DNA of 64,000 nt from Thermoplasmatota archaeon. GTDB taxonomy: Archaea > Thermoplasmatota > Penumbrarchaeia > Penumbrarchaeales > Penumbrarchaeaceae. Every line of letters begins with the position of its first letter. The first letter of the stretch is position 1. The position numbers and the translations under genes were made by a program. The stretch lies in the NCBI GenBank assembly GCA_965234725.1, contig CBDDUX010000003.1:64001-128000 (forward strand), in the 5' to 3' direction. The notes under the pieces are model-generated. The model saw only the letters and a list, made by a program, of their open reading frames with translations. It was not told the origin of the DNA and searched no databases. This document shows positions 3,565 through 44,603 of the stretch, piece by piece.

Positions 3565-4854
3565 TCAGATCCCTTTTCTCTTATCGATGACCCTCTTAGC
3601 TTTTCCTTCGGTCCTGGGAAGTGCTCCCGGGGCAAGAAGTTCCACCCTTGCTCTGAGAGTCAATGATGCCTGTAACTTGTCAGAGACCTTTTTCTTGAGC
3701 TGATCCAGATCGATCTTATCCCAGAATTCCTCTTTCACTTCGACCTGGACATAGAGGTAATCCAGCTTGGTATGTTCAAGGATTATCTGGAACTGCTCTC
3801 CCAGTTCATCGATCCCAACAAGGATATCTTCAATTTGCGATGGGAATACATTTACTCCACCAACGATCAGCATGTCATCAGATCTTCCTTTCACCCTCAT
3901 GATCCTTGGATGCGACCTGCCGCATTTACACCTCTCCCAATTGATGACCGCAAGGTCCCTTGTCCGATATCTCAGCAGAGGCATGGCCTCTCTGGTGAGC
4001 ATTGTGAACACGATCTCACCCTTCTGTCCAGGAGGTAGTACCTCTCCCGTATCAGGATCGATGGTCTCCACCAGGAACTCATCCGCCCATATGTGAAGAC
4101 CGTCCTGTTCAGGACACTCAACGGCAACCCCAGGACCATAGAGCTCGGACATGCCGTAAAGGTCCTGGGCTTTGATATTTAGGTTCTTCTGGATATGCTG
4201 CCTTGCCTCTTCTGACCAGGGTTCGGCACCGTGCATGCCTATCTTGAGGTTGAGGTCCTTGGAGTCGATCCCTTCCTTCTTCAACTCCTCTATCAGGTAG
4301 ATCGCATAAGAAGGGGTGCAACAAAGGACGGTGGTCCTCATGTCCTTCATCATCTTGATCTGTCTAGCTGTGTTCCCAGTTGCTGTAGGCACTATCATTG
4401 TTCCAAGCCTTTCCGCACCCATGTGGAATCCAAGACCCCCTGTGAACAGACCATAGCCATATGCATTTTGTACAATATCCTCGGGAATGACACCAGCACA
4501 TGAATAACATCTTGCCATAAGATCGGACCATGTGTCAAGGTCCTGTCTTGTATAGGAGACCACAGTTGGTGTACCTGTTGTCCCGGAAGATGCGTGGATC
4601 CGGTTAAGGGTTTCAAGGGGAACGGCCAGTATCCCGTATGGGTAATGGTCCCTGAGATCATTTTTTACGGTGAAAGGTATCTTGGAGATATCGGAAAGTT
4701 CTTTGATATCCTCCGGTTTGAGTCCTAACTCATCGAACCTCTTTTTGTACATTGGAACGTTGTCATAAGCGTGCTTGACCTGTTTTTTCAATCTTTCCAA
4801 CTGCAGTTCTTTGATCTCTTTCTTCGACATCAACTGGATATCTTCCTGGTACAA
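3565..4854 (-). CDS. paaK: Phenylacetate-CoA ligase family
   Basis: HASSGTTGTP, YGYGLFTGGLG, GAEPWSEE, YGMSE, RYRTRD, GRSDDMLIVGGVNVFPSQIE. Confidence 0.9.
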   Translation of the reverse strand: MYQEDIQLMSKKEIKELQLERLKKQVKHAYDNVPMYKKRFDELGLKPEDIKELSDISKIPFTVKNDLRDHYPYGILAVPLETLNRIHASSGTTGTPTVVSYTRQDLDTWSDLMARCYSCAGVIPEDIVQNAYGYGLFTGGLGFHMGAERLGTMIVPTATGNTARQIKMMKDMRTTVLCCTPSYAIYLIEELKKEGIDSKDLNLKIGMHGAEPWSEEARQHIQKNLNIKAQDLYGMSELYGPGVAVECPEQDGLHIWADEFLVETIDPDTGEVLPPGQKGEIVFTMLTREAMPLLRYRTRDLAVINWERCKCGRSHPRIMRVKGRSDDMLIVGGVNVFPSQIEDILVGIDELGEQFQIILEHTKLDYLYVQVEVKEEFWDKIDLDQLKKKVSDKLQASLTLRARVELLAPGALPRTEGKAKRVIDKRKGI

Positions 4855-5126: not shown

Positions 5127-6440
5127 ATGGCTTATGAGTTGAGATGGGGAAACCGGACATGGATCTATGCCCTTGCACTTGGCCTTGGGATCGGAATGGC
5201 AGTCCTGTTGTTGTTCAAGGATATGTTGGGTGAAATAGCATTCTGGAGTTATTATTCTCCCATGCTCGGTTATTATGTCCTCATATCCATTTGCCAGAGC
5301 CATTATTTCAGAAGGGAGCCGAAACCTGATATGGGAGGATTGTTCAGACAATTTGTTTCCATTTTTGGAGCCATAGTCATATTCTTTTTAAATCAGGCGG
5401 TCATGGAATCCATTTTTGTTGTTCCAGATGGTTTCATCATGGCGGGTCATTTCACATTCATTGTCTTTGGATTCTTCATTTACGGATTTGATGATTTCAT
5501 GTTCAAAGGAAAATTGCTAGGATGGATGAAGAATGATACGACCAAGGCATTTTTCTGGTATTTTTTCATATGGCTGATATGGGTAGTTCTTTTCTACAGT
5601 GATTTTGGCATATCAAAAGCCCATTCCAAGGACACCTGGGATGGATTGGCACAGAACAGGATGCTGGCAATAAGTCAATGGGCGATCATTATGTCCCTTC
5701 TCTATGCACTTCTGTTCAAGGATTGGCTTCCAGAACTTCAAAATAAATTAAGATTGAAGAATGATATCGTTTACGGTATCTTTCTCCTTCTTGCAGCTTT
5801 TATCATCGGGGGAGGTATCGCTTACCTGTTGTTTACAATGGCACCTTACATATCCCCGGAAGGGTATGACAGCCTGGTTGCGGATCCGGGTGTGAATGTC
5901 GACTCTGATATGTGGCATCATATCTTGTATATGGGAACTTTCCCATTGATACCTGCTATTCTGATAGGGGTCTATACCAAGAACTTCAACCACCTTCCTG
6001 GACCTGGCGAGAGGGTCATAAAGAGATTGATGATCTTCATACCCTCTGTCATAGTATTGTATTTCGCATATCACTGGTTGATAGCCCGGCCTGAAGTGTT
6101 CATCAATTACTTCTTTGATGATGCGGTTAAACCGGGATTAGGCCTTTTTGGAGAATCACATCATAACTGGTACCATCAACTGGACCTTTACTTCAACTTC
6201 ACTGTTTCCATTATTCCACTGACACATCATTGGTTCTGTGGAAGATATGGTTTCGTCAGGGAGGTTGACGATGAAGAACCTGAGAGTCCACCTCGGAGCA
6301 GGAGACCGGTAACAGTTGATGAGAGAAGGTCCAGGGAGAGGAGGGAAGTTATCTCTTCCGGAAGACCTGTAAGGGCTTCACCCAGGGAAAGGTTCCACTC
6401 TGAGAATGAACGGGACCTATCACGTCGCGAATGGCGATGA
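5127..6440 (+). CDS. Multi-pass membrane protein of unknown function with His-rich motifs and an Arg/Glu-rich C-terminal tail
   Basis: 437-aa ORF with roughly 9-10 hydrophobic segments; no family recognised. Confidence 0.7.
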   Translation: MAYELRWGNRTWIYALALGLGIGMAVLLLFKDMLGEIAFWSYYSPMLGYYVLISICQSHYFRREPKPDMGGLFRQFVSIFGAIVIFFLNQAVMESIFVVPDGFIMAGHFTFIVFGFFIYGFDDFMFKGKLLGWMKNDTTKAFFWYFFIWLIWVVLFYSDFGISKAHSKDTWDGLAQNRMLAISQWAIIMSLLYALLFKDWLPELQNKLRLKNDIVYGIFLLLAAFIIGGGIAYLLFTMAPYISPEGYDSLVADPGVNVDSDMWHHILYMGTFPLIPAILIGVYTKNFNHLPGPGERVIKRLMIFIPSVIVLYFAYHWLIARPEVFINYFFDDAVKPGLGLFGESHHNWYHQLDLYFNFTVSIIPLTHHWFCGRYGFVREVDDEEPESPPRSRRPVTVDERRSRERREVISSGRPVRASPRERFHSENERDLSRREWR

Positions 6441-6681: not shown

Positions 6682-7965
6682 ATGGCACGACGGGGTATAA
6701 GGGAATACGATGCAAAGAGAGTATTTTACAGAATGATGCCTAAGTATACCGGTGAGAAGGTGACCTTCGATATCATGCCCATATTGGTGGGTCCGGATAC
6801 TGATTTAGATATGCTTGTGGATGACAATCCCTGGCTTGAGAACATCAGATTGGTTGTGAAACCCGATCAGCTTTTCGGAAAGAGGGGGAAATCCGGTCTG
6901 GTCCTCTTGAACTGTTCTTTCGATGAAGCAAAGAACTTCATCAAGCAGAAAATGGGTAAGAATGCCACTGTTGGAAAGGTAAAGGGTAGACTTGAATATT
7001 TTCTAGTGGAACCATTCCTTCCTCATGACCTTGAGTATTATATTGCAATGAAGATGGATGCTGATGGGGACCATATCTATTTTTCAACTCAGGGAGGAGT
7101 GGATATTGAATCTGTCTGGGAGACAGTAAAGGAGGTCACCATCGGACCCCTGGATGATCCAGAACTTGAAACTAAGGATCTTCTCAAGGATAATTCAGCC
7201 CAGGAAAAGAAATTACTTACTCCTTTTCTCAAGGGTATGTACAAATTCTTTGTTAACCATGATCTTGTCTATCTCGAGATAAATCCATTCACCATCGTTG
7301 ATAACAAGATCAAAGTTCTCGACATGGTTGCCAAGGTGGATGACACTTCCATGTGGCAGGATATTGGTACATGGGATTTCAAAGAGTTCCCGGAACCCTT
7401 CGGCAAGGACCCCACCCCTGAAGAAGCATACATCAAATCACTGGATGAGAAGACAGGAGCTTCCCTTAAATTGACGATCCTCAATCCGGAAGGCCGAGTA
7501 TGGACAATGGTAGCAGGTGGGGGAGCATCTGTTGTATATGCGGATACCATAGTGGATATGGGTTTTGGAAAAGAACTTTCCAATTATGGTGAATATTCAG
7601 GTAATCCATCCACCGAGGAGACATACCTTTATGCTAAAACGGTCCTCTCAATGATGACAAAAGAGCCCCATAAGACCGGAAAAGGCAAGATACTGATAAT
7701 CGGAGGAGGTATCGCAAATTTTACTGATGTCGCTAAGACATTCACGGGTATCATTCAAGCACTCCGTGAATATGCTGACCAGATGAAGGAGGTTGGGGTC
7801 AGGATCTATGTTCGAAGAGGCGGTCCCAATTACAAAGCCGGTCTGGAGAATATGAGAGAGGTTGGCTCAGAGATTGGTATACCCATCAAAGTGTTCGGTC
7901 CGGAAGTTCATATGACCTCAATTATTCCAATGGCTTTAAAAGATGAAGGAAAGGGGGTGAACTGA
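6682..7965 (+). CDS. aclB: ATP-citrate lyase, ATP-grasp/citrate-binding subunit
   Basis: KPDQLFGKRGK, MVAGGGASVVYAD, NYGEYSGNP, GGGIANFTDVAKTF, RRGGPNY. Confidence 0.93.
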   Translation: MARRGIREYDAKRVFYRMMPKYTGEKVTFDIMPILVGPDTDLDMLVDDNPWLENIRLVVKPDQLFGKRGKSGLVLLNCSFDEAKNFIKQKMGKNATVGKVKGRLEYFLVEPFLPHDLEYYIAMKMDADGDHIYFSTQGGVDIESVWETVKEVTIGPLDDPELETKDLLKDNSAQEKKLLTPFLKGMYKFFVNHDLVYLEINPFTIVDNKIKVLDMVAKVDDTSMWQDIGTWDFKEFPEPFGKDPTPEEAYIKSLDEKTGASLKLTILNPEGRVWTMVAGGGASVVYADTIVDMGFGKELSNYGEYSGNPSTEETYLYAKTVLSMMTKEPHKTGKGKILIIGGGIANFTDVAKTFTGIIQALREYADQMKEVGVRIYVRRGGPNYKAGLENMREVGSEIGIPIKVFGPEVHMTSIIPMALKDEGKGVN

Positions 7966-9803
7966 TGGAACCATACCTTCTTTTTTCAAGGGATTCAAAA
8001 GCAATAGTATACAATATGCAGACAAAGGCTGTTCAGAGAATGCTGGATTTCGATTACCTTTCAGGTAGGGAGAAACCTTCCGTAGCTGCTATAGTCAATC
8101 CGGGTAACTCCGGTACACATAAAGCTCACTGGGGAACCGGTGAGATACTAATACCCATTATGCCATCGATAAAGGCGGCTACCGATGTCAACAAGGAAAT
8201 CGATGTTGTGGTAAACTTCGCTTCGTTCAGGTCGGCCTACCAGAGCACAAAGGAAGCTTTGATGAACGAGCAGATCAGGGTAGTAGCCGTCATTGCAGAA
8301 GGTATCCCGGAGAGGAAGGCAAGGGAGCTTGCTTATCTGTCGAAGAAGCTTGATAAGGTAATAATTGGCCCTGCGACGGTTGGAGCGATCGGAGCCGGAG
8401 TCTTCAAGGTTGGTAATACTGGTGGAACACTTGAGAACATCAAAGAGCAGAAACTCTACAGAAGAGGTTCTGTGGGACTGGTGACAAAATCCGGAGGCCT
8501 TCTCAACGAGATGTTCAACATTGTTTCGCATAATACAGATGGGATATTCGAGGGAGTTGCCATCGGTGGTGATAAATATCCGGGTTCAAGTCTTATCGAT
8601 CATCTGTTAAGGTACGAAGCAAATCCAAAGATCAAGATGATGGTGGCTCTAGGAGAACTGGGTGGTGATGAAGAATACAAGGTCGTCGAAGCTGTTAAGA
8701 AGGGACTTCTCACCAAACCCATAGTATTCTGGGTGATGGGAACATGCTCCAAGATGTTCCCTTCGGGAGTTCAATTCGGACATGCCGGAGCGAAGGCCGG
8801 AGCGGAGACCGAGACAGCTGACGCAAAGAACAAGGCTCTGAAGAAGGCCAGAGTGATCGTTCCAAGTTCTTTTGATACCTTGGGTGATGAGATCGCAAGG
8901 ACCTTCATCAAACTCAAGGATGAGGGTAAGATAACACCCATCGAAGAACCGAAGCATATTCCATTGATTCCGGTGGATTATGCGGATGCCTTGAAGAAAG
9001 GAATGATCAGAAAACCCACATCCTTCATCACTACCGTTGCGGATGATCGGGGGGAGGAGGTCAATTACGGAGGATATCCAATATCCGAGATCGTCCATGA
9101 CGGTGGAACGGTTGGTGATGTCATAGGTCTCCTATGGTTCGGGAGAAAATTCCCAAAATGGGCTTCCAAGTTCATGGAGATGGCAATTATGGTAGTTGCT
9201 GACCATGGACCCGCCGTATCAGGAGCCCACAACGCCATCATAGCCTCCAGGGCCGGAAAAGACCTTGTCAGCTGTCTTGCTTCAGGTCTGCTTACTATAG
9301 GTCCCAGGTTCGGTGGAGCAATTGACGGTTGTGCCAATTTCATGAAGAATGCCTACTACAGTGATCTGGAACCAAGGGCTTTCGTCAAGGAAATGAAAGA
9401 TAAGAACATAAAGATACCAGGGATAGGTCACCGTGTCAAATCCCTGGAGAATCCGGATGGAAGGGTCACACTCCTGATCGAGTATGCCAGGAAGAATTTC
9501 CCTAAAACAGATATCCTGGATTATGCGATCGATGTCCAGGCTGTGACAACCCAGAAGAAATCCAATCTGATCCTCAACGTGGATGGTACCATTGGAGTTC
9601 TGATGGTGGATATGCTCACCAATGTGGGATTCTTCTCAAAGGAAGAGGTAGACCGGATCGTAGAGCTTGGATACCTCAACGGGATCTTTGTCCTTGGCAG
9701 GTCTATAGGTCTGATAGGACATGCACTGGACCAGAAGAGGCTCAATGAGAGATTGTACAGACATCCATGGGAGGACATCCTCTACATGGTTGAGAGGAAG
9801 TGA
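7965..9803 (+). CDS. aclA: ATP-citrate lyase, CoA-binding/phospho-His/citryl-CoA lyase subunit
   Basis: NFASFRSA, IIGPATVG, QFGHAGA (phospho-His), ADHGPAVSGAHN, PGIGHRVKS, LNVDG; TGATG stop/start overlap with aclB. Confidence 0.93.
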   Translation: MEPYLLFSRDSKAIVYNMQTKAVQRMLDFDYLSGREKPSVAAIVNPGNSGTHKAHWGTGEILIPIMPSIKAATDVNKEIDVVVNFASFRSAYQSTKEALMNEQIRVVAVIAEGIPERKARELAYLSKKLDKVIIGPATVGAIGAGVFKVGNTGGTLENIKEQKLYRRGSVGLVTKSGGLLNEMFNIVSHNTDGIFEGVAIGGDKYPGSSLIDHLLRYEANPKIKMMVALGELGGDEEYKVVEAVKKGLLTKPIVFWVMGTCSKMFPSGVQFGHAGAKAGAETETADAKNKALKKARVIVPSSFDTLGDEIARTFIKLKDEGKITPIEEPKHIPLIPVDYADALKKGMIRKPTSFITTVADDRGEEVNYGGYPISEIVHDGGTVGDVIGLLWFGRKFPKWASKFMEMAIMVVADHGPAVSGAHNAIIASRAGKDLVSCLASGLLTIGPRFGGAIDGCANFMKNAYYSDLEPRAFVKEMKDKNIKIPGIGHRVKSLENPDGRVTLLIEYARKNFPKTDILDYAIDVQAVTTQKKSNLILNVDGTIGVLMVDMLTNVGFFSKEEVDRIVELGYLNGIFVLGRSIGLIGHALDQKRLNERLYRHPWEDILYMVERK

Positions 9804-10014: not shown

Positions 10015-13931
<3,917 letters not shown>

Positions 13932-13932
13932 A

Positions 13933-14832
13933 TCATTCCACCTCTTCTGGGGATGGTATATCAAGTTCTGCAGCCTCGGCCATTGCAAGTATCTTCTCTG
14001 CCTTCAGAACAATAGGCCGATCCACCATTTTCTTTCCAAGCGCAATGACCCCCCATCCTTTTTCTTTGGCGATCTGGATGGCCTTTTTCACTCTGACGGC
14101 ATAGATGATCTCTTCCTTCGTTGGGTTAAAGACATCATGGATGATCTCGATCTGAGATGGATGGATACATGCCTTGCCATCGAATCCCATCTTCCTGATC
14201 ATATCTGTTTCACTTCTGAGACCATCAGAATCGCTGAAATCGGAATATACCGTATCTATTGCCTGGATCCCTGCGGCTTTGGCTGCCAGGACGATCAACT
14301 GCCTTGAGGTATGTATGGCAATACCATCGGATGATCTGATGCCACCTAGGTCAGCTGTTAGGTCTTCTCCGCCAATGGTTATTCCTTCCAGCCTTTTAGA
14401 GCAGAATGCGATCTCCTTTGAGTTGAGAATGCCCTTTGCAGTCTCCATGGTTGCAAAAAGCTTGATCCTTCCGATCGGAAGTCCCTTCTTCTCTTCCATT
14501 TCAGTTACAAGTTCATCGACTTGGATAACATCCTCTGGAGTTTCTGTTTTTGGGATATATATACCATCCAATCTGGGACAGACTATCTGCCTGATATCCC
14601 ATTTTCCCCAGGGTGTGCTGATAGGATTTATCCTTACGGTCACTTCCACATTTGGACCGAAATCCACTACCTTCAAAGCTTCAGATACGAGCATCCTCGC
14701 ATCTACTTTAAAATCGGGATGAACGGCATCTTCAAGATCGAGTGAGATAACATCGGCACCGTAAAGACCGGCGGGAGGTATCATTTTGGGATTATTACCA
14801 GGGACATAGAGTCTGGACCTTCTTAGCTTCAT
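13933..14832 (-). CDS. citE: Citrate lyase beta subunit (citryl lyase)
   Basis: RRSRLYVPGNNP, DLEDAV, VRIN, GEDLTADLG, GFDGKACIHPSQI. Confidence 0.9.
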   Translation of the reverse strand: MKLRRSRLYVPGNNPKMIPPAGLYGADVISLDLEDAVHPDFKVDARMLVSEALKVVDFGPNVEVTVRINPISTPWGKWDIRQIVCPRLDGIYIPKTETPEDVIQVDELVTEMEEKKGLPIGRIKLFATMETAKGILNSKEIAFCSKRLEGITIGGEDLTADLGGIRSSDGIAIHTSRQLIVLAAKAAGIQAIDTVYSDFSDSDGLRSETDMIRKMGFDGKACIHPSQIEIIHDVFNPTKEEIIYAVRVKKAIQIAKEKGWGVIALGKKMVDRPIVLKAEKILAMAEAAELDIPSPEEVE

Positions 14833-15116
14833 TCGAATGCACCACCCTTGATAGCAGCGGCCTTTATGCGGGCCACTATGGTGAAATTCAATGGGCTGTT
14901 TCCTTTTGACCAGACAAGAGCGTCTTCTATGCCCATGCCTATAAGGGTTTCATGAAAGAGCTTGAATACCTCATCTCTGAACACATCTCTGGATTTCCCC
15001 TCTATCTCGATCTTTATACCTGTTCCAGGTTCCGCAGGGCTGAGTTTTACTATGCAATCCTCTCTCTCTTCGGTCCCTGCGATCCCTTCCCTTTTCAACT
15101 TATACGTCAATGTCAT
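14829..15116 (-). CDS. citD: Citrate lyase acyl-carrier (gamma) subunit homologue lacking the attachment Ser
   Basis: 95 aa; AGTEERED aligns to the CitD motif AGTLES(S/G)D; C-terminal TIVARIKAA; overlaps the citE start (ATGA). Confidence 0.8.
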   Translation of the reverse strand: MTLTYKLKREGIAGTEEREDCIVKLSPAEPGTGIKIEIEGKSRDVFRDEVFKLFHETLIGMGIEDALVWSKGNSPLNFTIVARIKAAAIKGGAFE

Positions 15117-15143
15117 TTTATCGCCTTTTCTTATTTATCATGA

Positions 15144-17066
15144 TCAGGATATTTGGTTCCTGGTATAGTTCAGAGTGCCTCCCTCTCTAATGACCTCAAT
15201 TTCCCTATCAGAAAGGTCATGGACAAGTGAGATCTTGAGGTTCTTGTTCTTAACTTCCAGGATAAGTTCTCCGGAAAGATCCGATAATCCTATTTGCAGA
15301 AGATCTCCCTGTTCAAGCAGATCGTAGTCCGATTGGTCCTTGAAGGTAAGGGGGAGAATTCCAAAGTTTACCAGGTTAGCCCTATGTATCCTGGCGAAGG
15401 ATTTCACGATAACAGCTTTAATTCCAAGATATTTTGGAGCAAGGGCAGCATGTTCCCTTGAGGAACCCTGACCGTAATTATCCCCTCCGATGATGAATCC
15501 GCCTCCCTTTTCAAGTGCCCTTTTTGGGAAGGTCTCATCGACCTGAGAGAAAACGTATTCAGATATTGCAGGAATGTTCGATCGAAGAGGTAGGATCTTC
15601 GCTCCTGCAGGCATGATATGATCGGTTGTAATATTGTCCTCTACTTTGATAAGAACCTCACCCTCCGCGGAAACCGGTAGTTCATGGAAATCAGGGAGAG
15701 GTTTGATGTTTGGCCCTCTGATTATTTCTACCTTACTAGCTTCATCAGCCGGGAGAGGATGTATGAAAAGGTTGTTATCCACGAGATAGGATTCAGGTTC
15801 CTGGACTTTGGTGAACTTTCCCAGTTTCCTTGGATCGGTTATTTTACCGAAAAGAGCTGTTGCAGCTGCAACCTCAGGGGAGACCAGATAGACATCTGCG
15901 TCCTTTGTCCCCGACCTTCCAGGGAAGTTCCTGTTGAAGGTCCTGACAGATACTGCACCGGATTTTGGTGCAAGTCCCATTCCGATACAGGGACCGCAGC
16001 CAGACTCAAGTATCCTGAATCCTGCCTCAACAAGGTCTCCGTATGCACCAGTTCTTACCATTTCCCTGATGATCGTCCTCGAACCGGGTGATATGGTCCC
16101 TGAGATGTCCTCATGGATCCTTCGTCCTTTTACAGCATTAGCTACGGTCATCAGGTCCCTGAAAGAAGAGTTAGTACAAGACCCGATACAAACTTGGTCG
16201 ACCTTCATTCCCTCTAACTCTGATATCTCTACCACTGATCCTGGGGAATGGGGTTTTGCTGCCATGGGGACAATTGAGGATAGATCGATCTCCATTATTT
16301 CATCATAGACAGCATCCGGATCCGCCTTGATCTCAACCCATTGTTCTCCCCTTCCCATAGCCTCCATGAACTTCTTTGTAACATTGTCTGAAGGGAATAT
16401 CGAGGTTGTAGCACCGGTCTCCGTGCCCATGTTGGTCACTGTGGCTCTGTCAGGTACGGAGAGGGTAGAAACCCCCGGACCGAAGTACTCAAGGATATAT
16501 CCTCTTCCACCCTTGACATCCAATCTTTTCAGTACTTCCAGAATAATGTCCTTACCAGATACCCAATCCGGAAGCTCTCCTGTTAGTTTTATCCCCAAGA
16601 TCTTGGGGTACTTCAATTGGAATGCTCCACCAGCCATTGCAACCGCAATATCCAGACCTCCAGCCCCGATAGATATCTGACCGATACCTCCGGCGGTGGT
16701 TGTATGGGAATCCGATCCGATCAATGTCTTTCCTGGTTTTGAGAACCTTTCAAGGAAGACCTGATGGCATATACCATTCCCAGCCTTTGAGAGGACAATG
16801 CCATATCTCTTTGCAATGGATTGAAGATATCTGTGGTCATCGGCATTCTTGAAATCGGATTGAAGCATGTTGTGATCGATGAAGGAAACGGAAAGTTCCG
16901 TCTTGACCCTGTCGAGGTTCATGGCCTCGAATTGCAGGTACGCCATTGTCCCAGTAGCATCCTGGGTCAAGGTATGGTCCATTCGTATCGCGATCTCTTC
17001 TCCAACTTTTTCAGTTCCTTCCACTAAATGCTCTTTAAGGATCTTCTGAGCCAAGGTAAGTCCCAT
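15144..17066 (-). CDS. acn: Aconitate hydratase (short ~640-aa type)
   Basis: TQDATGT, DHN, GICHQ, DSHT, IGSCTNSS, CGPCIGMG, NRNF, NITTDHI, NYGQGSSREHAA. Confidence 0.9.
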   Translation of the reverse strand: MGLTLAQKILKEHLVEGTEKVGEEIAIRMDHTLTQDATGTMAYLQFEAMNLDRVKTELSVSFIDHNMLQSDFKNADDHRYLQSIAKRYGIVLSKAGNGICHQVFLERFSKPGKTLIGSDSHTTTAGGIGQISIGAGGLDIAVAMAGGAFQLKYPKILGIKLTGELPDWVSGKDIILEVLKRLDVKGGRGYILEYFGPGVSTLSVPDRATVTNMGTETGATTSIFPSDNVTKKFMEAMGRGEQWVEIKADPDAVYDEIMEIDLSSIVPMAAKPHSPGSVVEISELEGMKVDQVCIGSCTNSSFRDLMTVANAVKGRRIHEDISGTISPGSRTIIREMVRTGAYGDLVEAGFRILESGCGPCIGMGLAPKSGAVSVRTFNRNFPGRSGTKDADVYLVSPEVAAATALFGKITDPRKLGKFTKVQEPESYLVDNNLFIHPLPADEASKVEIIRGPNIKPLPDFHELPVSAEGEVLIKVEDNITTDHIMPAGAKILPLRSNIPAISEYVFSQVDETFPKRALEKGGGFIIGGDNYGQGSSREHAALAPKYLGIKAVIVKSFARIHRANLVNFGILPLTFKDQSDYDLLEQGDLLQIGLSDLSGELILEVKNKNLKISLVHDLSDREIEVIREGGTLNYTRNQIS

Positions 17067-17235: not shown

Positions 17236-18369
17236 ATGGAAAAAGTGTCAATGATGAAGGGATTATCAACCACAGAGAAGCTTGTCTTCATGGGTCTGAT
17301 CACCTATCCGGACAATAAGGATACAGAGATAGCAGAGATGCTTTCACTTCCAAATTCCACCTTCGCATCGGTAAAATCAAGGATAATGGAGGAAGGTTTT
17401 CTTTACGAGAGATATATTCCCATATTTCCGAACCTTGGATTCGAACTTCTTGCTGCAGTTTACAGTGATTTTAACCCATCTGTATCAGTTGATGAAAGGA
17501 TAGCAAATACCCGAAGGACCGTTGAGATATATCCGGAGATGATACTCTCAATGGGAGAATCCCATAGAGGTTTCTCACTTTCAGTAGCAGAGAATATAAC
17601 CCGGATAATGAGGATATCCCACCAGAGGATGAAGATCCTTGCCGATCTGAACCTTCTGGAGATCGAGTTACCAAGAGAAGTGATATTCCCATTCGAGATG
17701 TCCACAATTCACCGTTTCTTCAACCTGGCCCCCCTCCTGTATGCAAAGCTTTCTGGCGAAAGAGACCTGGTAATGAAGGATATCTCGGGTCTTGAGAGGG
17801 ACATATACAAGAAGGACCCCATCCTTCAGGTAAAGTACCCCAATAGCAAGAAGAGACCGGTGGATGTGAACTTATCTCGGAAGCAGTTGGAGATATTGTA
17901 CTACCTGATAAAACACCCGGAACTATCGGCCTCTCGGCTTTCCACCATCATTCCTTATTCCAGGCATACGATCTCTCGTGCAAGGGAGATGTTAATTGAG
18001 GAAGGATATTTGGCCTGCACTCGTATACCTGATCTTTCCAAATTGGGTTATTCGATGCTTTCACTATTCCATGTGAAGATGGATCCAAAAAACCCCATTG
18101 ATCCTCAGGTATGTAAGAGGAAGGAACTCCTCCAGGATGATACCGTATTCTTTGTATCGAGACCCACAGAGCTGATGATGCTGGCTGTTTACGAGAATTA
18201 CCCACATTATAATAGAGGGATGTCCATATTCAGCCAATATTTGAAAGTCGAGGGATACATGTCAACGATCCCCACGATAAGGAATCATTCTCTTTCCGAG
18301 GCAGTCTGGATCAAGAAGTTCATTCAACATCCGATAATAAAGGATGCTTTCCACCTTGATATTGATTGA
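17236..18369 (+). CDS. Internally duplicated Lrp/AsnC-like transcriptional regulator
   Basis: Two copies of a wHTH followed by P-x-(F/L)-xx-LG(F/Y) and an effector-like domain; divergent from acn. Confidence 0.7.
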   Translation: MEKVSMMKGLSTTEKLVFMGLITYPDNKDTEIAEMLSLPNSTFASVKSRIMEEGFLYERYIPIFPNLGFELLAAVYSDFNPSVSVDERIANTRRTVEIYPEMILSMGESHRGFSLSVAENITRIMRISHQRMKILADLNLLEIELPREVIFPFEMSTIHRFFNLAPLLYAKLSGERDLVMKDISGLERDIYKKDPILQVKYPNSKKRPVDVNLSRKQLEILYYLIKHPELSASRLSTIIPYSRHTISRAREMLIEEGYLACTRIPDLSKLGYSMLSLFHVKMDPKNPIDPQVCKRKELLQDDTVFFVSRPTELMMLAVYENYPHYNRGMSIFSQYLKVEGYMSTIPTIRNHSLSEAVWIKKFIQHPIIKDAFHLDID

Positions 18370-22766: not shown

Positions 22767-23924
22767 TCAACTATCGGATGAAAGTAGGAATTCCTTGCCC
22801 ATCCTTTTAATACCATATTTTTCCTCGATATCCTTGAATTTCTCTAAGAGACGTGTCTTGTCTCCCATAGTGAGATATTTGTTTGCCAGAGGGAAATAAT
22901 ATTCCTCTTCCCTTTTAAGGTGCTCCCTCAAGATCTTGATATATCTTTTTAGAGCCCTTTTTAGCGCTATATGTTTCATGGAGGATCCGATTGACTTCCC
23001 AATAATGGCTGTTACTCCGCTTCCACAATCCGGACATTCTCCTTTGAAAGAGTAGTTACCAGTTTCCATCTGGAAGATCGTAGGTTCTTTCATGATGACT
23101 TTTTCCTTGCATTTCAGACAGTAGGCTGGAAAATCATCTATATGTTCCATTATATTGTAATCCTTGCTGGCTTCAGGGTCTTTATCAAGGCTCTCCTTGT
23201 AGCTTGTGAACAATTCCTTTATCTCTTCAACCACTGTTTCGAGTTTGACATGTTCTTCTTCGATCAACTTCGATGATGATTCCTTCAGGGTCTGATTCAC
23301 CTCTGACTGGGATTTTATCAATCTATCCATAAAGGCAATCGAGTACTCGTTCTCCTTATCCTGATGTATGCTGGTTTCGAGTACAAAAGATCTTCCTGAA
23401 AGCCAGTCCACCAATTTGTTCTTCGCTTCCTGATCGACCCTTTCGATCAGCTCCTCGAGCTTCTTTGCCTGAAACCTTAGGATACCGTGTTCGTCAAGCA
23501 GGTTTTCAACAGGGTCTGTTTCGCTCTTTTCAACCTCTTCAGGAAGTTCTAGGAAATAATCTATTGCTGTCTCCAACCTCTCCATGATAGTGCTCCTATC
23601 GTATGGTTTGGTGAGTAGATCATTGGCTCCCATCTCCGTGGCGTTCATTATATCATATCTACCACCCCTATCACCAGTGATGATGATATAGCAATCCCTG
23701 TTATTGTGGTGGTTGAGCTCCCTGATCTTGGTGGCCAGTTCAAGTCCATCGATGCTGGGGAGGTTCCAATCTAAAAATAAGATGGATATCTCCTCATCTT
23801 TTTTATATGCCGTTAGGACCTCTCCACCTGAATCAAGGATGATGGGATCGTGTTCCTGTGTCCTCAAAGTGTTGGCAATCATCGTCCTGTAAGCCTCATT
23901 CTCATCAGCTATGATAACCTTCAT
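22767..23924 (-). CDS. Receiver domain plus hemerythrin-like (HHE) domain with inserted Cys4 zinc ribbon, paralogue 1
   Basis: REC motifs LFLDWNLP, IITG and KP; HHE ligands DEH, HQDKE, EEH and HLKRE; insert YCLKC...ECPDC. Confidence 0.8.
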   Translation of the reverse strand: MKVIIADENEAYRTMIANTLRTQEHDPIILDSGGEVLTAYKKDEEISILFLDWNLPSIDGLELATKIRELNHHNNRDCYIIITGDRGGRYDIMNATEMGANDLLTKPYDRSTIMERLETAIDYFLELPEEVEKSETDPVENLLDEHGILRFQAKKLEELIERVDQEAKNKLVDWLSGRSFVLETSIHQDKENEYSIAFMDRLIKSQSEVNQTLKESSSKLIEEEHVKLETVVEEIKELFTSYKESLDKDPEASKDYNIMEHIDDFPAYCLKCKEKVIMKEPTIFQMETGNYSFKGECPDCGSGVTAIIGKSIGSSMKHIALKRALKRYIKILREHLKREEEYYFPLANKYLTMGDKTRLLEKFKDIEEKYGIKRMGKEFLLSSDS

Positions 23925-24114
23925 AATCAGTCCCCTTTTATTTTTCCACAAAAGATTTTTGTGTATTTAAGGGATTGCCTTGAAATAAATGAGGAATAAT
24001 TGGCAATGCAAGAAAAACTGAATAAGGCAATTTCATCTAAACCGGATGACTTGTATTCAAGCCAATATTGGACCTCAATGTGAAATAAGATCGGATCAAA
24101 TATTCATCGATCGA

Positions 24115-25272
24115 TCAATTTGAAGGGGAAAGAAGAAAATCCTTCCCCATCCTGTGAATACCAAATTCATCCTCTATCTTTTTGAATTCTTCAAGGAGCC
24201 TTGTCTTATCCCCGCTTGTAAGGTACCTATTGGCTAGGGGGAAGTAAAGGTCCTCCTCTCTTTTCAGGTGATCCTTAAGGATATTGAGGTATTTTTTTAG
24301 CGATCTCTTCAGCGCTGCATGTTTCATTATGGCTCCTATGGATTTTCCAATAATGGAGGTGACCCCGCCATTACAATCAGGACAGTTCCCTTTGAAAGCA
24401 TAATTCCCTGTCTCCAACTGGAAAATGGATGGTTCCACCATTACTACTTTATTCTGGCATTTAAGGCAAAATGCAGGATAATCATTCACATGCTTCAAAA
24501 TATTGTAATTTTCTGGAAGTTCCTGCGGGGAATCAAGACTCTCTTTGTAGCTGTTGAACCTGTCCTTCACCTCAGAAACGATCGTATCCAGCTTGTTATG
24601 TTCACTCTCCACCCATTGGGAGGATGATTCGGATAGGGCTTGATTCTCTTCCCCGTGGGCATTCATCAACCTTTCCATGAAAGCTACAGAGAACTCGTGT
24701 TCCTTGTCCTGGTGTACTTTAGTCTCAAGGACAAATATCCTTCCCCCCATCCAGTTTATGAGCTTACTAGGTGCCTCTTCATCCACACTGTCAAGCAGGT
24801 CTTCCAACTTGTCTGCTTGGAATCTTAAGATCCCATGTTCGTCCATTAGATGCTCTACAGGATCCTTCTCGGTCTTTTCGACCTCATCAGGCAGCTCAAG
24901 AAAATGATCGATAGCGGTCTTCATTCTGTCAGCTATGATATTGCTGTCATATGGTTTGGTAATGAGGTCATTCGCTCCCATCTCCATTGCATTCATTATA
25001 TCATACCTTCCACCCTTTTCCCCTGTTATGATTATATAACAATCCCTGTTCATGTGGAAATTGAGGTATCTTATCTTTGTTGCAAGTTCCAATCCATCCG
25101 TTCCTGGGAGGTTCCAGTCCAAAAATAGGATATTGATATCATCATCCTTTTCATATGCATCCAGGACATTTTGGGCTGAATCCAATACAATTGGTTCATG
25201 GTCCTGTCTCCTTAGTGTATTTATTAACATGGTCCTGTAAACCTCATTTCCATCGGCTACTATAACTTTCAT
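24115..25272 (-). CDS. Receiver domain plus hemerythrin-like domain with inserted Cys4 zinc ribbon, paralogue 2
   Basis: Colinear with paralogue 1 over its full length, with the same ligands and FCLKC...NCPDC. Confidence 0.8.
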   Translation of the reverse strand: MKVIVADGNEVYRTMLINTLRRQDHEPIVLDSAQNVLDAYEKDDDINILFLDWNLPGTDGLELATKIRYLNFHMNRDCYIIITGEKGGRYDIMNAMEMGANDLITKPYDSNIIADRMKTAIDHFLELPDEVEKTEKDPVEHLMDEHGILRFQADKLEDLLDSVDEEAPSKLINWMGGRIFVLETKVHQDKEHEFSVAFMERLMNAHGEENQALSESSSQWVESEHNKLDTIVSEVKDRFNSYKESLDSPQELPENYNILKHVNDYPAFCLKCQNKVVMVEPSIFQLETGNYAFKGNCPDCNGGVTSIIGKSIGAIMKHAALKRSLKKYLNILKDHLKREEDLYFPLANRYLTSGDKTRLLEEFKKIEDEFGIHRMGKDFLLSPSN

Positions 25273-37695: not shown

Positions 37696-37811
37696 TATCA
37701 CTTTATGATAACTTTGGATTATCAGCGAAATCTTTAATATAAAACCAGGGAATGGTTCAATTCAGAGAAGCTATTGTTCCGAATACCGGACGGTCAGGCA
37801 AGGGATATATT

Positions 37812-39068
37812 ATGGGTATTATAGACTGGATCAGGGGAAGAAGGAAGAAACCTTCATCCGGATTACCCAGAGGTAAAGGTCCAGCTGTAGAAAGGAAACG
37901 GGGTAGAAAGGAGGAAATGGAACCCATTTTGGAAGAGCTGGAGATCGAAAGGATCCGCAACAGAGAACAGGAGAACAGGATACAAGAAATGGAACAGAGA
38001 TTCAACTCTCTTCAATCAAGATGGGCCTCCATGTTGGAACATCAGCAGACCACTATGATCAAATTGATAGAAAAGGGAGATGAAGAGGCAGATCCTGAAG
38101 GTGTCGTTTCATCAGGAAAAAAGAGAAAAGGAAAGTCCTCCCAGAAAAAGGGAAGTTCTTCATCCATCTCCCGTTTTTCATCCCCTGTCCTTCCAGAAAA
38201 GAAGTTCGAGAATTTCGTGGTCGACGATTCAAACAGATTCCCCTATCTTGCTTCGGAAGCTGTTGCTATTGGAAAAGGAAGAAAGTACAATCCTCTTTTC
38301 ATTTTCGGACCGGTGGGAGTTGGAAAAACACATTTACTGCATTCTATCGCCAACAGGATGCGTGAAAATAACGGCGACCTTAAGATACTCTATTCATCTA
38401 CAGAAAGGTTCACTGATGAATTGATAAGGTACCTTGATTCCGATGATATCAGGGGATTTAGGAATCTTTACCAGGAGGTCGATGTTCTCCTTGTCGATGA
38501 TATTCAGATGTTATCAGGCAGAGAGGCGACCCAGAAGGAATTCTTTCACATGTTCAATTACCTATACAACTCCGGAAAACAGATCGTCCTTTGCTCTGAC
38601 AGGCCTCCAAGCGATATCAAGGAGCTTGAAACCAGGCTCAGGTCAAGGTTCGAGGGAGGTCTGATAATCGACATCCAGGTTCCCACTTTCGAGGGAAGGA
38701 AGCAGATCCTCCTAAATCTATCTCAGATGGAAGGTTTCTCTATTTCATCGGAGGTTCTGGATTATCTATCATTCTACCTTGATTCCTCAGTAAGGGAGCT
38801 GGAAGGTGGGTTCAACAGAGTGACAGCCTATGCTTCCCTAATGAAGGAACCAATTACGGTTAACCTGGTCAGGAAAGTATTGGAAGGGTCGCTACAGAGA
38901 AGGGAATCTGTTCGGAAGGAAGATGAAGCTCAAAAGGAAGACCACCGCAGGTATGCTGAAAGTGAAACACATCAGGAAGAAGGCCCATACGATGATCTAG
39001 ACCTTGAGGAAGAGACCGATATGATCGAGGAGGAACTCCTTCAGGAACTGAGGAAAAAACCCCAATGA
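37812..39068 (+). CDS. DnaA/Hda-family AAA+ ATPase lacking DNA-binding domain IV
   Basis: FENFVV..SN, YNPLFIFGPVGVGKTHLL, LLVDDIQ, QKEFFHMFN, SDRPP, RLRSRFEGGL, VRELEG; ends in an acidic tail. Start adjusted from 37752. Confidence 0.85.
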   Translation: MGIIDWIRGRRKKPSSGLPRGKGPAVERKRGRKEEMEPILEELEIERIRNREQENRIQEMEQRFNSLQSRWASMLEHQQTTMIKLIEKGDEEADPEGVVSSGKKRKGKSSQKKGSSSSISRFSSPVLPEKKFENFVVDDSNRFPYLASEAVAIGKGRKYNPLFIFGPVGVGKTHLLHSIANRMRENNGDLKILYSSTERFTDELIRYLDSDDIRGFRNLYQEVDVLLVDDIQMLSGREATQKEFFHMFNYLYNSGKQIVLCSDRPPSDIKELETRLRSRFEGGLIIDIQVPTFEGRKQILLNLSQMEGFSISSEVLDYLSFYLDSSVRELEGGFNRVTAYASLMKEPITVNLVRKVLEGSLQRRESVRKEDEAQKEDHRRYAESETHQEEGPYDDLDLEEETDMIEEELLQELRKKPQ

Positions 39069-43757: not shown

Positions 43758-44489
43758 CTATGACATGATCTCCATCATGAATGCGTGGCCCTCTTCTCCA
43801 TTTACCTTCAAGGTGACGATCCTCGAACCTTTTTCGGAACCAGTGTAGATCTCGACGATATTTCCAACGAAGACCTCTGACCTATAGCTGAGGAGTAGAT
43901 CTGCGGATCTGTTGATCCCCCTACTATTCAATGAGAGTCCATCGAAACTCCATCTGACATATTCTGTGTTGTTTACATGCCCATTCATGTCTATGGAACT
44001 TTCACAGACCTTGATCGTATCCACTAATTCCAAATTTGAAGGGGAATTCTTTCTGGATATAGTGTCGAAATTCCTTCTGCCCTTGGAAGGAAAATTAAAA
44101 TCAAGGTCCTCTGTTCTTATCGGTCTCTTATTCTTTATATCTAGGACCATCCAAACCGATGTTGCCTTTAGTATTTCCTGATCATTCCTGTCAGTCAATG
44201 TGAATTCCCTGTAAGCTCTCAGATCATCAAATCCGGAAGGGATCGTGAAGAGAGTGCAGTTTTCGTTCCAGAGAGGCGATCGGTCCACTTTCATTCGAAT
44301 ATCAACAAGGACCCAGATCCGGCCGTTCTTGATCATCCAACCCATTCCCAATCCCATTTTCTCCGCATGATCTGAGGCAATTTCCTGCAGATGCTTCATG
44401 AGATCATGGATCCGCATCCTTCCATCAGGACCACATTCATAGGTTCTTGGTATAAGGTCACGTTCAAGGGCAGCTATCATGGTCATCAT
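43758..44489 (-). CDS. Acyl-ACP/acyl-CoA thioesterase (FatA/B-like double hotdog fold)
   Basis: LQEIASDHA, WVL, REF, ATSVWMVLD, IDMNGHVNNTEYVRW. Confidence 0.85.
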   Translation of the reverse strand: MMTMIAALERDLIPRTYECGPDGRMRIHDLMKHLQEIASDHAEKMGLGMGWMIKNGRIWVLVDIRMKVDRSPLWNENCTLFTIPSGFDDLRAYREFTLTDRNDQEILKATSVWMVLDIKNKRPIRTEDLDFNFPSKGRRNFDTISRKNSPSNLELVDTIKVCESSIDMNGHVNNTEYVRWSFDGLSLNSRGINRSADLLLSYRSEVFVGNIVEIYTGSEKGSRIVTLKVNGEEGHAFMMEIMS

Positions 44490-44603
44490 TCCTTTATACT
44501 CGGAAAATGAATATAATGATAGCATCCAACCATATTAATCGATGTGTGAGACATGGTAATGTTAAATAACCGCTATGGCTTTCAGGACGCTGGGTGGATG
44601 TTA

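Follow-up and report, generated by a model that had tools for sequence, protein, structure and literature searches.

How does a citrate lyase operate when its small subunit cannot be loaded with a cofactor? Citrate lyase is a textbook enzyme defined by a covalent arm resembling coenzyme A (CoA) and by a dedicated three-gene maturation system: a Ser of the small subunit, CitD, carries phosphoribosyl-dephospho-CoA, which is made by CitG and CitX and acetylated by CitC. The question is raised by a stretch of 64,000 nucleotides (referred to below as the window) from a sediment archaeon of the phylum Thermoplasmatota, order Penumbrarchaeales (assembly GCA_965234725.1, contig CBDDUX010000003.1, positions 64,001 to 128,000), in which a citD-like gene within an apparent citrate lyase operon has an Arg codon in place of the prosthetic-group Ser. 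An earlier note on this DNA, made from the sequence alone, had proposed a cofactor-independent citrate lyase, and our analyses favor that explanation.

The 95-amino-acid (aa) translation of the citD-like gene starts MTLTYKLKREGIAGTEEREDC. At 15063-15065 the plus strand reads TCT, the reverse complement of which is AGA, making codon 18 an Arg codon. The protein matches the Pfam family PF06857 over residues 9-88 with 41 bits (gathering cutoff, 25.1) and the citD equivalog TIGR01608 with 52.5 bits, which is under the cutoff of 63.5; it has Arg18 in the column of the Ser in the motif of that model, AGTLES(S/G/N)D. When 1.84 billion cluster representatives were searched in full with HMMER, 44 proteins had E values up to 0.001. 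The alignment with the window CitD includes 36 of these and excludes eight, namely, the fragments P0060 and P0062 and six proteins that are long or multidomain (P0079, P0090, P0093, P0095, P0099, and P0101). In this alignment, Arg18 falls in the column of the motif Ser, which is present in 21 of the 36 representatives and missing from 15 (R or K in 14 and N in one). Pairwise BLASTP against the Ser-bearing P0063 (39% identity over 82 aa, E value of 1e-17) also sets R18 opposite Ser, so that codon, alignment, and BLASTP all agree with the AGA codon and its column as first read.

The codon was checked in assembled contigs and not in raw reads. Contigs of the probable source run (X1) showed 0 differences over 13900-15400, and an independent marine-sediment DNA contig (X2) covering 14330-15188 showed 31 differences, none of them at 15063-15065. 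This was also the case for a metatranscriptome contig (X7, 14997-15266), with three differences, none at the codon. Since an RNA library can hold DNA too, X7 confirms the sequence and is only a hint that citD is expressed; the depth of X2, X7, and X9 and the gaps in their coverage carry no information on the level of expression. The check at 15063 for which the earlier note had called, carried out here on contigs, thus returned Arg and not Ser.

We then considered the phylum as a whole, using an even sample of 301 Thermoplasmatota genomes. A total of 58 CitD-like genes were found in 54 of these genomes, and all 58 were extracted and typed. None has Ser at the aligned position, which is occupied by K in 27, R in 21, E in eight, and Q and N in one each; the eight Glu-type genes all have Arg as the next residue (motif NERDC), and the Gln-type gene likewise. 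The codons used for Lys or Arg at this position are AAG, AAA, AGG, AGA, CGT, CGG, and CGA. Closer to the window CitD, an alignment of 33 of 54 close homologues (21 were omitted, mostly from short contigs, as was the partial P0058) has R or K at position 18 in all 33 sequences, with 30 invariant columns and a mean column identity of 76%. The three subunits are conserved to a similar degree (68-88% identity for CitD, 74-89% for CitE, and 77-89% for CitF), and citD appears to be under purifying selection. Cys21 was considered as a substitute thiol and rejected, given that Cys is also found there in the Ser-type P0069, P0076, L081, and L142, and that many Ser-less members have V, I, or L.

Searches of the archaeon's own genome (3.54 Mb in 114 contigs, 97.65% complete) for CitX (PF03802), CitG (PF01874), CitC (PF08218), and MdcG (PF10620) gave no matches; as a positive control, E. 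coli was recovered by the CitX, CitG, and CitC searches. The maturation genes that had been reported missing from the vicinity of the locus were therefore not detected in the rest of this assembly either. Among the 301 Thermoplasmatota genomes, CitX was found in none and CitG in eight, of which only G003 and G015 carry a CitD-like gene, and CitC gave five weak partial matches (19.5-26 bits), none in a genome with CitD.

A second comparison, across phyla, was anchored on CitF, taken as a neutral reference. Starting from 18 aligned CitF sequences, 80 citF loci were collected in 79 GTDB species genomes, with a CitD gene within the fetched flank of 65 of the 80. Fifty of the 79 genomes were searched, namely, all those with Ser-less CitD, all those without CitD at the locus, and 24 Ser-bearing ones, including one Bathyarchaeia and one Heimdallarchaeota metagenome-assembled genome (MAG). 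Ser-less genomes were thus taken exhaustively and Ser-bearing ones as a sample. In 26 of the 50, CitD copies beyond the locus were retrieved and typed as well, and four genomes with no detectable CitD (G314, G320, G325, and G326) were left out of the comparison. Ser-bearing CitD, in one or more copies, occurs in 30 genomes; CitX and CitG were both present in 30/30 of these and full-length CitC in 28/30, the exceptions being G328 (none) and G334 (a partial match of 37.7 bits). Among the 16 genomes with only Ser-less CitD (eight Thermoplasmatota and eight bacteria), CitX was present in 0/16, CitG in 1/16 (G308), and full-length CitC in 0/16, with partial CitC matches of 19-35 bits in G306, G307, G308, and G310. 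The Ser-bearing Bathyarchaeia and Heimdallarchaeota genomes gave clear CitX matches (E values of 6e-37 and 1e-37), so that the absence from Thermoplasmatota is no failure of detection. Loss of the Ser and absence of the maturation genes, whose association the earlier note had suggested checking, are therefore correlated, in a set in which kin are not independent, several genomes also belong to the phylum sample, and most are MAGs. Two further bacterial variants of CitD were seen, with Thr at the Ser position followed by Ser in G317 (AGRRDTSD; L080/L152) and with Arg followed by Ser in G318 (CGQYERSD; L153). Neither CitX nor CitG was found in G317 or G318.

The partner subunits look intact judging from their sequences (scores in Table 1). 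CitF exceeds the citF equivalog cutoff of 501, shares ca. 50% identity with the CitF proteins of Pelosinus, Sporomusa, Clostridium, and Anaerovirgula, and matches solved CitF chains (PDB 2hj0 and 1xr4). CitE belongs to the HpcH_HpaI family and scores under the cutoff of 443 for TIGR01588. Over 36 CitE sequences, linked to either Ser-type or Ser-less CitD, 35 columns are invariant, including R67, E130, D157, and D271, which from CitE-family structures we take to be metal and substrate ligands. The solved relatives closest to CitE (malyl-CoA lyase, CLYBL, Mycobacterium tuberculosis CitE, and citramalyl-CoA lyase) have free CoA esters as substrates, a ranking that carries little weight since no complex-type CitE has a solved structure.

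CitD-profile sequence searches of the PDB found no solved CitD structure either. The AlphaFold model of the window CitD, of moderate confidence (predicted local distance difference test [pLDDT], 71.2; predicted template modeling score [pTM], 0.57), has a strand at residues 11-13, a loop at 14-20 with AGTEERED, a strand at 21-27, and then a strand-helix-strand-helix succession. As in the MdcC fold, the model has a five-stranded sheet, two helices, and a carrier loop between antiparallel strands. In a structure search independent of Foldseek, MdcC of the Pseudomonas malonate decarboxylase (5vit_C) ranked 4 of 48161 chains (Z score, 9.0; root mean square deviation, 2.4 Å), with residues 4-92 of the model on 11-97 of the chain and 87 of 97 residues aligned. 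The offset of 7, if ungapped, would place R18 on MdcC Ser25. With Foldseek, the same model retrieved from the PDB only EF-G domain IV and ribosomal S5-like domains, at E values of at least 6e-4, and MdcC was not among the 50 best matches. Structural similarity to EF-G domain IV and to the ribosomal protein S5 domain-2-like fold (Z scores of 8-10) is a property that CitD/MdcC has in common with the N-terminal domains of GHMP kinases. In the accessible account of malonate decarboxylase (PMC5534430), MdcC Ser25 sits on a loop tip directed into the active site of the CitF-like MdcA, the ribose 2'-OH of a modeled CoA lies ca. 10 Å from Ser25, and MdcC contacts both MdcA and a second enzyme. A complex prediction with CitF, CitE, CitD, and CoA scored 0.83 in three runs and 0.00 in both controls with CitD replaced; a control with CitF replaced reached 0.81, so the score is not specific to this set of subunits and counts neither for nor against binding.

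The Ser-less state is distributed over several lineages. In a quick IQ-TREE reconstruction of 77 CitF rows (the short rows L069, L085, L088, and L094 were dropped), the Ser-less label requires four changes, at least three of them forced by well-supported branches, compared with a mean of 14.5 for shuffled labels. Thirteen Ser-less rows, from Thermoplasmatota, WOR-3, Krumholzibacteriota, and further bacteria, lie in one part of the tree that adjoins the Ser-bearing Bathyarchaeia/Heimdallarchaeota pair, and three from Negativicutes (L092, L100, and L108) are nested among Ser-type Sporomusaceae. From this tree, the Ser-less state seems to have arisen, or to have been exchanged, more than once, always to Lys or Arg. 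CitD is fused to the N terminus of CitE in 27 genes (22 archaeal, of 369-377 aa, and five bacterial), all 27 of them Ser-less; no clear Ser-bearing fusion was seen among these loci, L114 being ambiguous (a 322-aa frame with a CitD match of 36.5 bits). The model of the 373-aa fusion L018, built on an alignment of 21 fusions, has a mean pLDDT of 92.0 and a pTM of 0.88, with a CitD domain at residues 1-82, a link without secondary structure at 83-102, and CitE from 103. Among the Negativicutes, the Sporomusaceae MAG G305 has four CitD genes of the Ser type and a fifth of the Lys type; the citDEF set of the latter (L092) is flanked by genes for a DctM transporter and a family III CoA-transferase. 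Veillonella intestinalis DSM 110113 (L108) is a cultured carrier of Ser-less CitD; its fused CitD/E, of the Lys type, and its CitF are flanked by a Na-coupled di/tricarboxylate symporter on one side and a CitMHS-type transporter on the other.

The operon of the window probably encodes a citrate lyase without a prosthetic group, in which acetyl-CoA and citryl-CoA turn over in free form. CitD would remain as a docking subunit, and its Lys/Arg perhaps holds a CoA phosphate. The earlier proposal of a cofactor-independent enzyme is supported in this respect by the Arg found in the contigs, by the absence of citC, citG, and citX, and by the correlation of the Ser with CitX and CitG. In such an enzyme the covalent 2'-(5''-phosphoribosyl)-3'-dephospho-CoA arm would have been given up. 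CitF would use free acetyl-CoA as the CoA donor for citrate, with acetate and citryl-CoA as products, and CitE would split citryl-CoA into oxaloacetate and acetyl-CoA. A catalytic pool of free acetyl-CoA would then stand in for the tethered thiol, and CitG, CitX, and CitC would be unneeded. CitD would be retained as a docking subunit on CitE, the tip of its hairpin loop bearing Lys/Arg instead of Ser; this residue would hold a phosphate of free CoA noncovalently, and by bringing the two active sites near each other, CitD would allow labile citryl-CoA to be handed on. By analogy with the MdcC-MdcA geometry, a Lys/Arg at the loop tip could reach the 3'-phosphate on the ribose of free CoA and replace the phosphoribosyl bridge. 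Together with aconitase and isocitrate dehydrogenase, the enzyme would link 2-oxoglutarate, isocitrate, and citrate to oxaloacetate and acetate. Isolated citrate lyase subunits reportedly take free CoA esters in vitro, a finding of Dimroth and Eggerer from 1975. We infer the use of free CoA esters, the role of the Lys/Arg, and the direction of flux, as well as those parts of the earlier proposal in which free acetyl-CoA and citryl-CoA are cycled, CitD acts as a scaffold, and, above all, citryl-CoA is shared with the neighboring ATP-citrate lyase (ACL).

An extension of this mechanism, which we think quite unlikely, is that CitF draws its CoA from another donor, e.g., succinyl-CoA, loss of the tether having opened the catalytic cycle to other CoA donors. 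Acetyl-CoA would then be the net product from citrate without ATP, in a reverse or bidirectional step of the tricarboxylic acid (TCA) cycle, and the conserved Lys/Arg would be a noncovalent clamp for the CoA 3'-phosphate. If true, this would be a second thioester-conserving citrate cleavage in archaea without citrate synthase, beside ACL, aconitase, and isocitrate dehydrogenase.

The arrangement of the locus (Table 1) agrees with the order acn-citD-citE-citF-idh first described, on the minus strand, with the ACL genes convergent. Frames are open throughout the operon, and the ATG of citE overlaps the stop of citD by four nucleotides, a gene overlap suited to coupled translation. The same operon order with the divergent TrmB-like regulator was found again in L067, L068, and L069, the last of which also has ACL convergent downstream. 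Linkage of acn and citD is kept in L067-L069, L071, L082, and L083, with acn-citDEF extending to another Thermoplasmatota lineage (L071), and the Ser-type loci of Bathyarchaeia and Heimdallarchaeota have the acn-citDEF order too. This acn-citDEF(-idh) linkage and the citrate-type transporters at the Ser-less locus of V. intestinalis point to citrate as the probable substrate. The only match to PF00285, the citrate-synthase family, in the archaeon's genome is the C-terminal part of AclA (window 9135-9761), i.e., no separate citrate synthase was found by this search of the 97.65% complete assembly, and three ADP-forming acyl-CoA synthetase-type genes of ca. 700 aa each are present. From these gene contents, citrate would be made or split only by ACL and CitDEF in this archaeon, and acetate and acetyl-CoA should be interconvertible.

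Table 1. Coordinates in the window of the cit operon and adjacent features
Feature	Position	Strand	Evidence or remark
citD-like gene, citrate lyase gamma / MdcC-family small subunit without the prosthetic-group Ser	14829..15116	-	95 aa; PF06857, MdcC fold
Codon 18 of citD, AGA (Arg), column of the prosthetic-group Ser	15063..15065	-	Alignment and pairwise BLASTP
citE, citryl-CoA lyase (beta) subunit, 299 aa	13933..14832	-	PF03328, 206 bits; TIGR01588, 319 bits
citF, citrate CoA-transferase (alpha) subunit, 548 aa from ATG at 13931	12285..13931	-	TIGR01584, 596 bits
acn, aconitate hydratase, first gene of the operon	15144..17066	-	NF005558, 965 bits
idh, monomeric NADP isocitrate dehydrogenase, last gene of the operon	10015..12258	-	TIGR00178, 1291 bits
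aclB (6682-7965) and aclA (7965-9803), ATP-citrate lyase, convergent with the cit operon	6682..9803	+	PF16114, PF24948, PF00285, PF00549
TrmB-like regulator, divergent from acn	17236..18369	+	PF01978

Beyond these genes, a 437-aa protein without a Pfam match is encoded directly upstream of aclB (5127-6440, plus strand), beside a PaaK-like AMP-binding ligase (3565-4854, minus strand), and both hold the same place next to ACL in L069. Elsewhere in this archaeal window, a 438-aa protein (37752-39068, plus strand) matches PF00308, the ATPase domain of bacterial DnaA, with 195 bits, and two adjacent paralogues (22767-23951 and 24115-25272, both minus strand) combine a response-regulator receiver, DUF5679, and a hemerythrin-like domain. 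The window also encodes an archaeal threonyl-tRNA synthetase editing domain, Rpb4, Pus10, and DUF655; these archaeal markers, taken with the names of close homologues, assign the organism to the Thermoplasmatota. With regard to carrier-protein functions, the genome has an acyl-acyl carrier protein (ACP) thioesterase, a stand-alone AcpS-type phosphopantetheinyl transferase (PPTase), and a 3741-aa frame with a PPTase domain (43758-44525, minus strand; G000:C26:89012-89299; and G000:C54:26209-26421, in this order). Many Thermoplasmatota have comparable frames of 3000-3800 aa, suggestive of a giant carrier-protein-dependent synthase.

Some observations weigh against a prosthetic-group-free citrate lyase. 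One genome with only Ser-less CitD (G308) has CitG, and the genomes compared are mostly MAGs of nonindependent kin, eight of the 16 with only Ser-less CitD being Thermoplasmatota. The basic residue is not strictly fixed, with eight archaeal genes having Glu followed by Arg, and single genes Gln, Asn, or Thr. CitD and CitE score under their NCBIfam equivalog cutoffs, which leaves room for a shifted specificity. No CitF column separates Ser-linked from Ser-less-linked sequences in both independent lineages, and thus there is no sign of an adapted site for the CoA 3'-phosphate; six columns are specific to the archaeal and candidate-phyla group, and three of these six are common to the Ser-bearing Bathyarchaeia/Heimdallarchaeota rows. 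Finally, the match of R18 with Ser25 comes from a model of pLDDT 71 and an offset, not from a residue-level structural alignment.

Shifted specificity is the core of one alternative, in which Ser-less CitDEF-like sets are free-CoA-ester enzymes for another acid (of the citramalate, malate, or itaconate type) or catalyze another net reaction. The score of CitE under its equivalog cutoff fits this idea, as do its top solved relative, a malyl-CoA lyase (5ugr, 165 bits), and the case of L092, which adjoins a family III CoA-transferase in a genome that also has four Ser-type CitD. However, CitF is over its equivalog cutoff, and in the archaeon and its relatives aconitase and isocitrate dehydrogenase flank the genes, with ACL as a neighbor. 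The acn-citDEF order is also that of the Ser-type Bathyarchaeia and Heimdallarchaeota, and the PDB ranking says little in the absence of a solved canonical complex-type CitE. Overall, we regard this alternative as rather unlikely; another substrate is possible for some Ser-less lineages and disfavored for the operon of the window. It is very unlikely, in our judgment, that a covalent cofactor is still attached to the small subunit at a different residue (e.g., S70, S74, Thr15, or the Lys/Arg itself) by an enzyme unrelated to CitX/MdcG, keeping the tethered arm. S70 and S74 are invariant in the close family, and the archaeon's genome has two PPTase matches, but both serines are missing from more distant Ser-less members, e.g., P0059 and P0061, and PPTases occur in 17 of the 54 CitD-bearing genomes, all of one family, and in 0/35 others. 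Furthermore, the archaeon's stand-alone PPTase is surrounded by glycosyltransferases. Lys, Arg, and Glu-Arg replace one another in relatives, which is a poor fit to a modified residue, and CitG, which makes the precursor, is missing as well. The modification of another Ser, which the earlier note had named as an outcome that would overturn its proposal, is thus unlikely.

That CitD is a decaying relic, or its Arg a sequencing or assembly error, in a locus with no working citrate lyase, is hardly credible. The point in its favor, also raised as a caveat in that note, is that AGA is one base from the AGY codons of Ser. This worry is removed by the seven different Lys/Arg codons among the relatives, and the independent DNA contig and the RNA-library contig have the identical codon. 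Decay is likewise at odds with the 30 invariant columns across 33 relatives, the open frames and overlapping genes, and the fusion with CitE kept in 27 genes. Error or decay of citD is therefore excluded as far as sequence data can exclude them.

If a prosthetic-group-free citrate lyase is what these genes encode, there are consequences beyond this archaeon. Annotation pipelines label the predicted Ser-less protein "citrate lyase ACP," and in metabolic models of sediment archaea and of several candidate bacterial phyla the cofactor need, products, and regulation of the assigned reaction may differ. For example, deacetylation would not inactivate a Ser-less form, whose net products could include acetyl-CoA. 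As a natural experiment, the form would also bear on the reason for tethering a cofactor in the first place. Our literature search, which did not extend to supplementary tables (those of PMC9802188 and PMC12220078 might list citDEF), found no published account of a CitD without its Ser. ACL and a reverse TCA cycle in Thermoplasmatota have already been published, according to the accessible text of the same two papers.

The nearest known system is the classical CitDEF with CitC, CitX, and CitG of Klebsiella pneumoniae, E. coli, and lactic acid bacteria (EC 4.1.3.6). It has the same three subunit families in the order citD-citE-citF; the resemblance extends to CitF, with its score and bacterial identities given above, and to the loop columns G14 and D20, which are invariant in all 135 distinct CitD domains collected. 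In contrast, the archaeon has Arg for the cofactor Ser, lacks CitX, CitG, and CitC, and has CitD and CitE below the equivalog cutoffs, and its operon partners are aconitase and isocitrate dehydrogenase instead of a citrate carrier and oxaloacetate decarboxylase. The free-CoA-ester CitE-like lyases (malyl-CoA lyase, human CLYBL, M. tuberculosis CitE, and citramalyl-CoA lyase) are the top matches of both the window CitE and the CitE part of the fusion (5ugr, 5vxc, 4l9y, and 6aq4), and they illustrate that the fold works on free CoA thioesters. However, they have no CitD or CitF partner, whereas here both are kept and appear to be cotranslated. The citryl-CoA lyase of Hydrogenobacter is another CitE-like lyase acting on free CoA esters. 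The MdcC-MdcA pair of Pseudomonas malonate decarboxylase (PDB 5vit), as far as described in the accessible part of PMC5534430, shares a like fold, a CitF-like MdcA, and a loop tip pointing toward the transferase site. MdcC keeps Ser25, though, and needs MdcB and MdcG, whereas the window CitD has Arg and no MdcG or CitG homologue was found in its genome. In Ignavibacterium album, a CitE-CitD fusion with CitF has been described as an ATP-independent citrate lyase with a suggested role in the reverse TCA cycle (PMC3362086, as far as its accessible text goes; no mention of a missing Ser or of missing maturation genes was found there). That architecture is the fused one of the 27 Ser-less genes, whereas the citD of the window is a separate gene. 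By its sequence, the window CitD is thus a separate, unfused representative of a citrate lyase form that is widespread and lacks both the Ser and the maturation genes.

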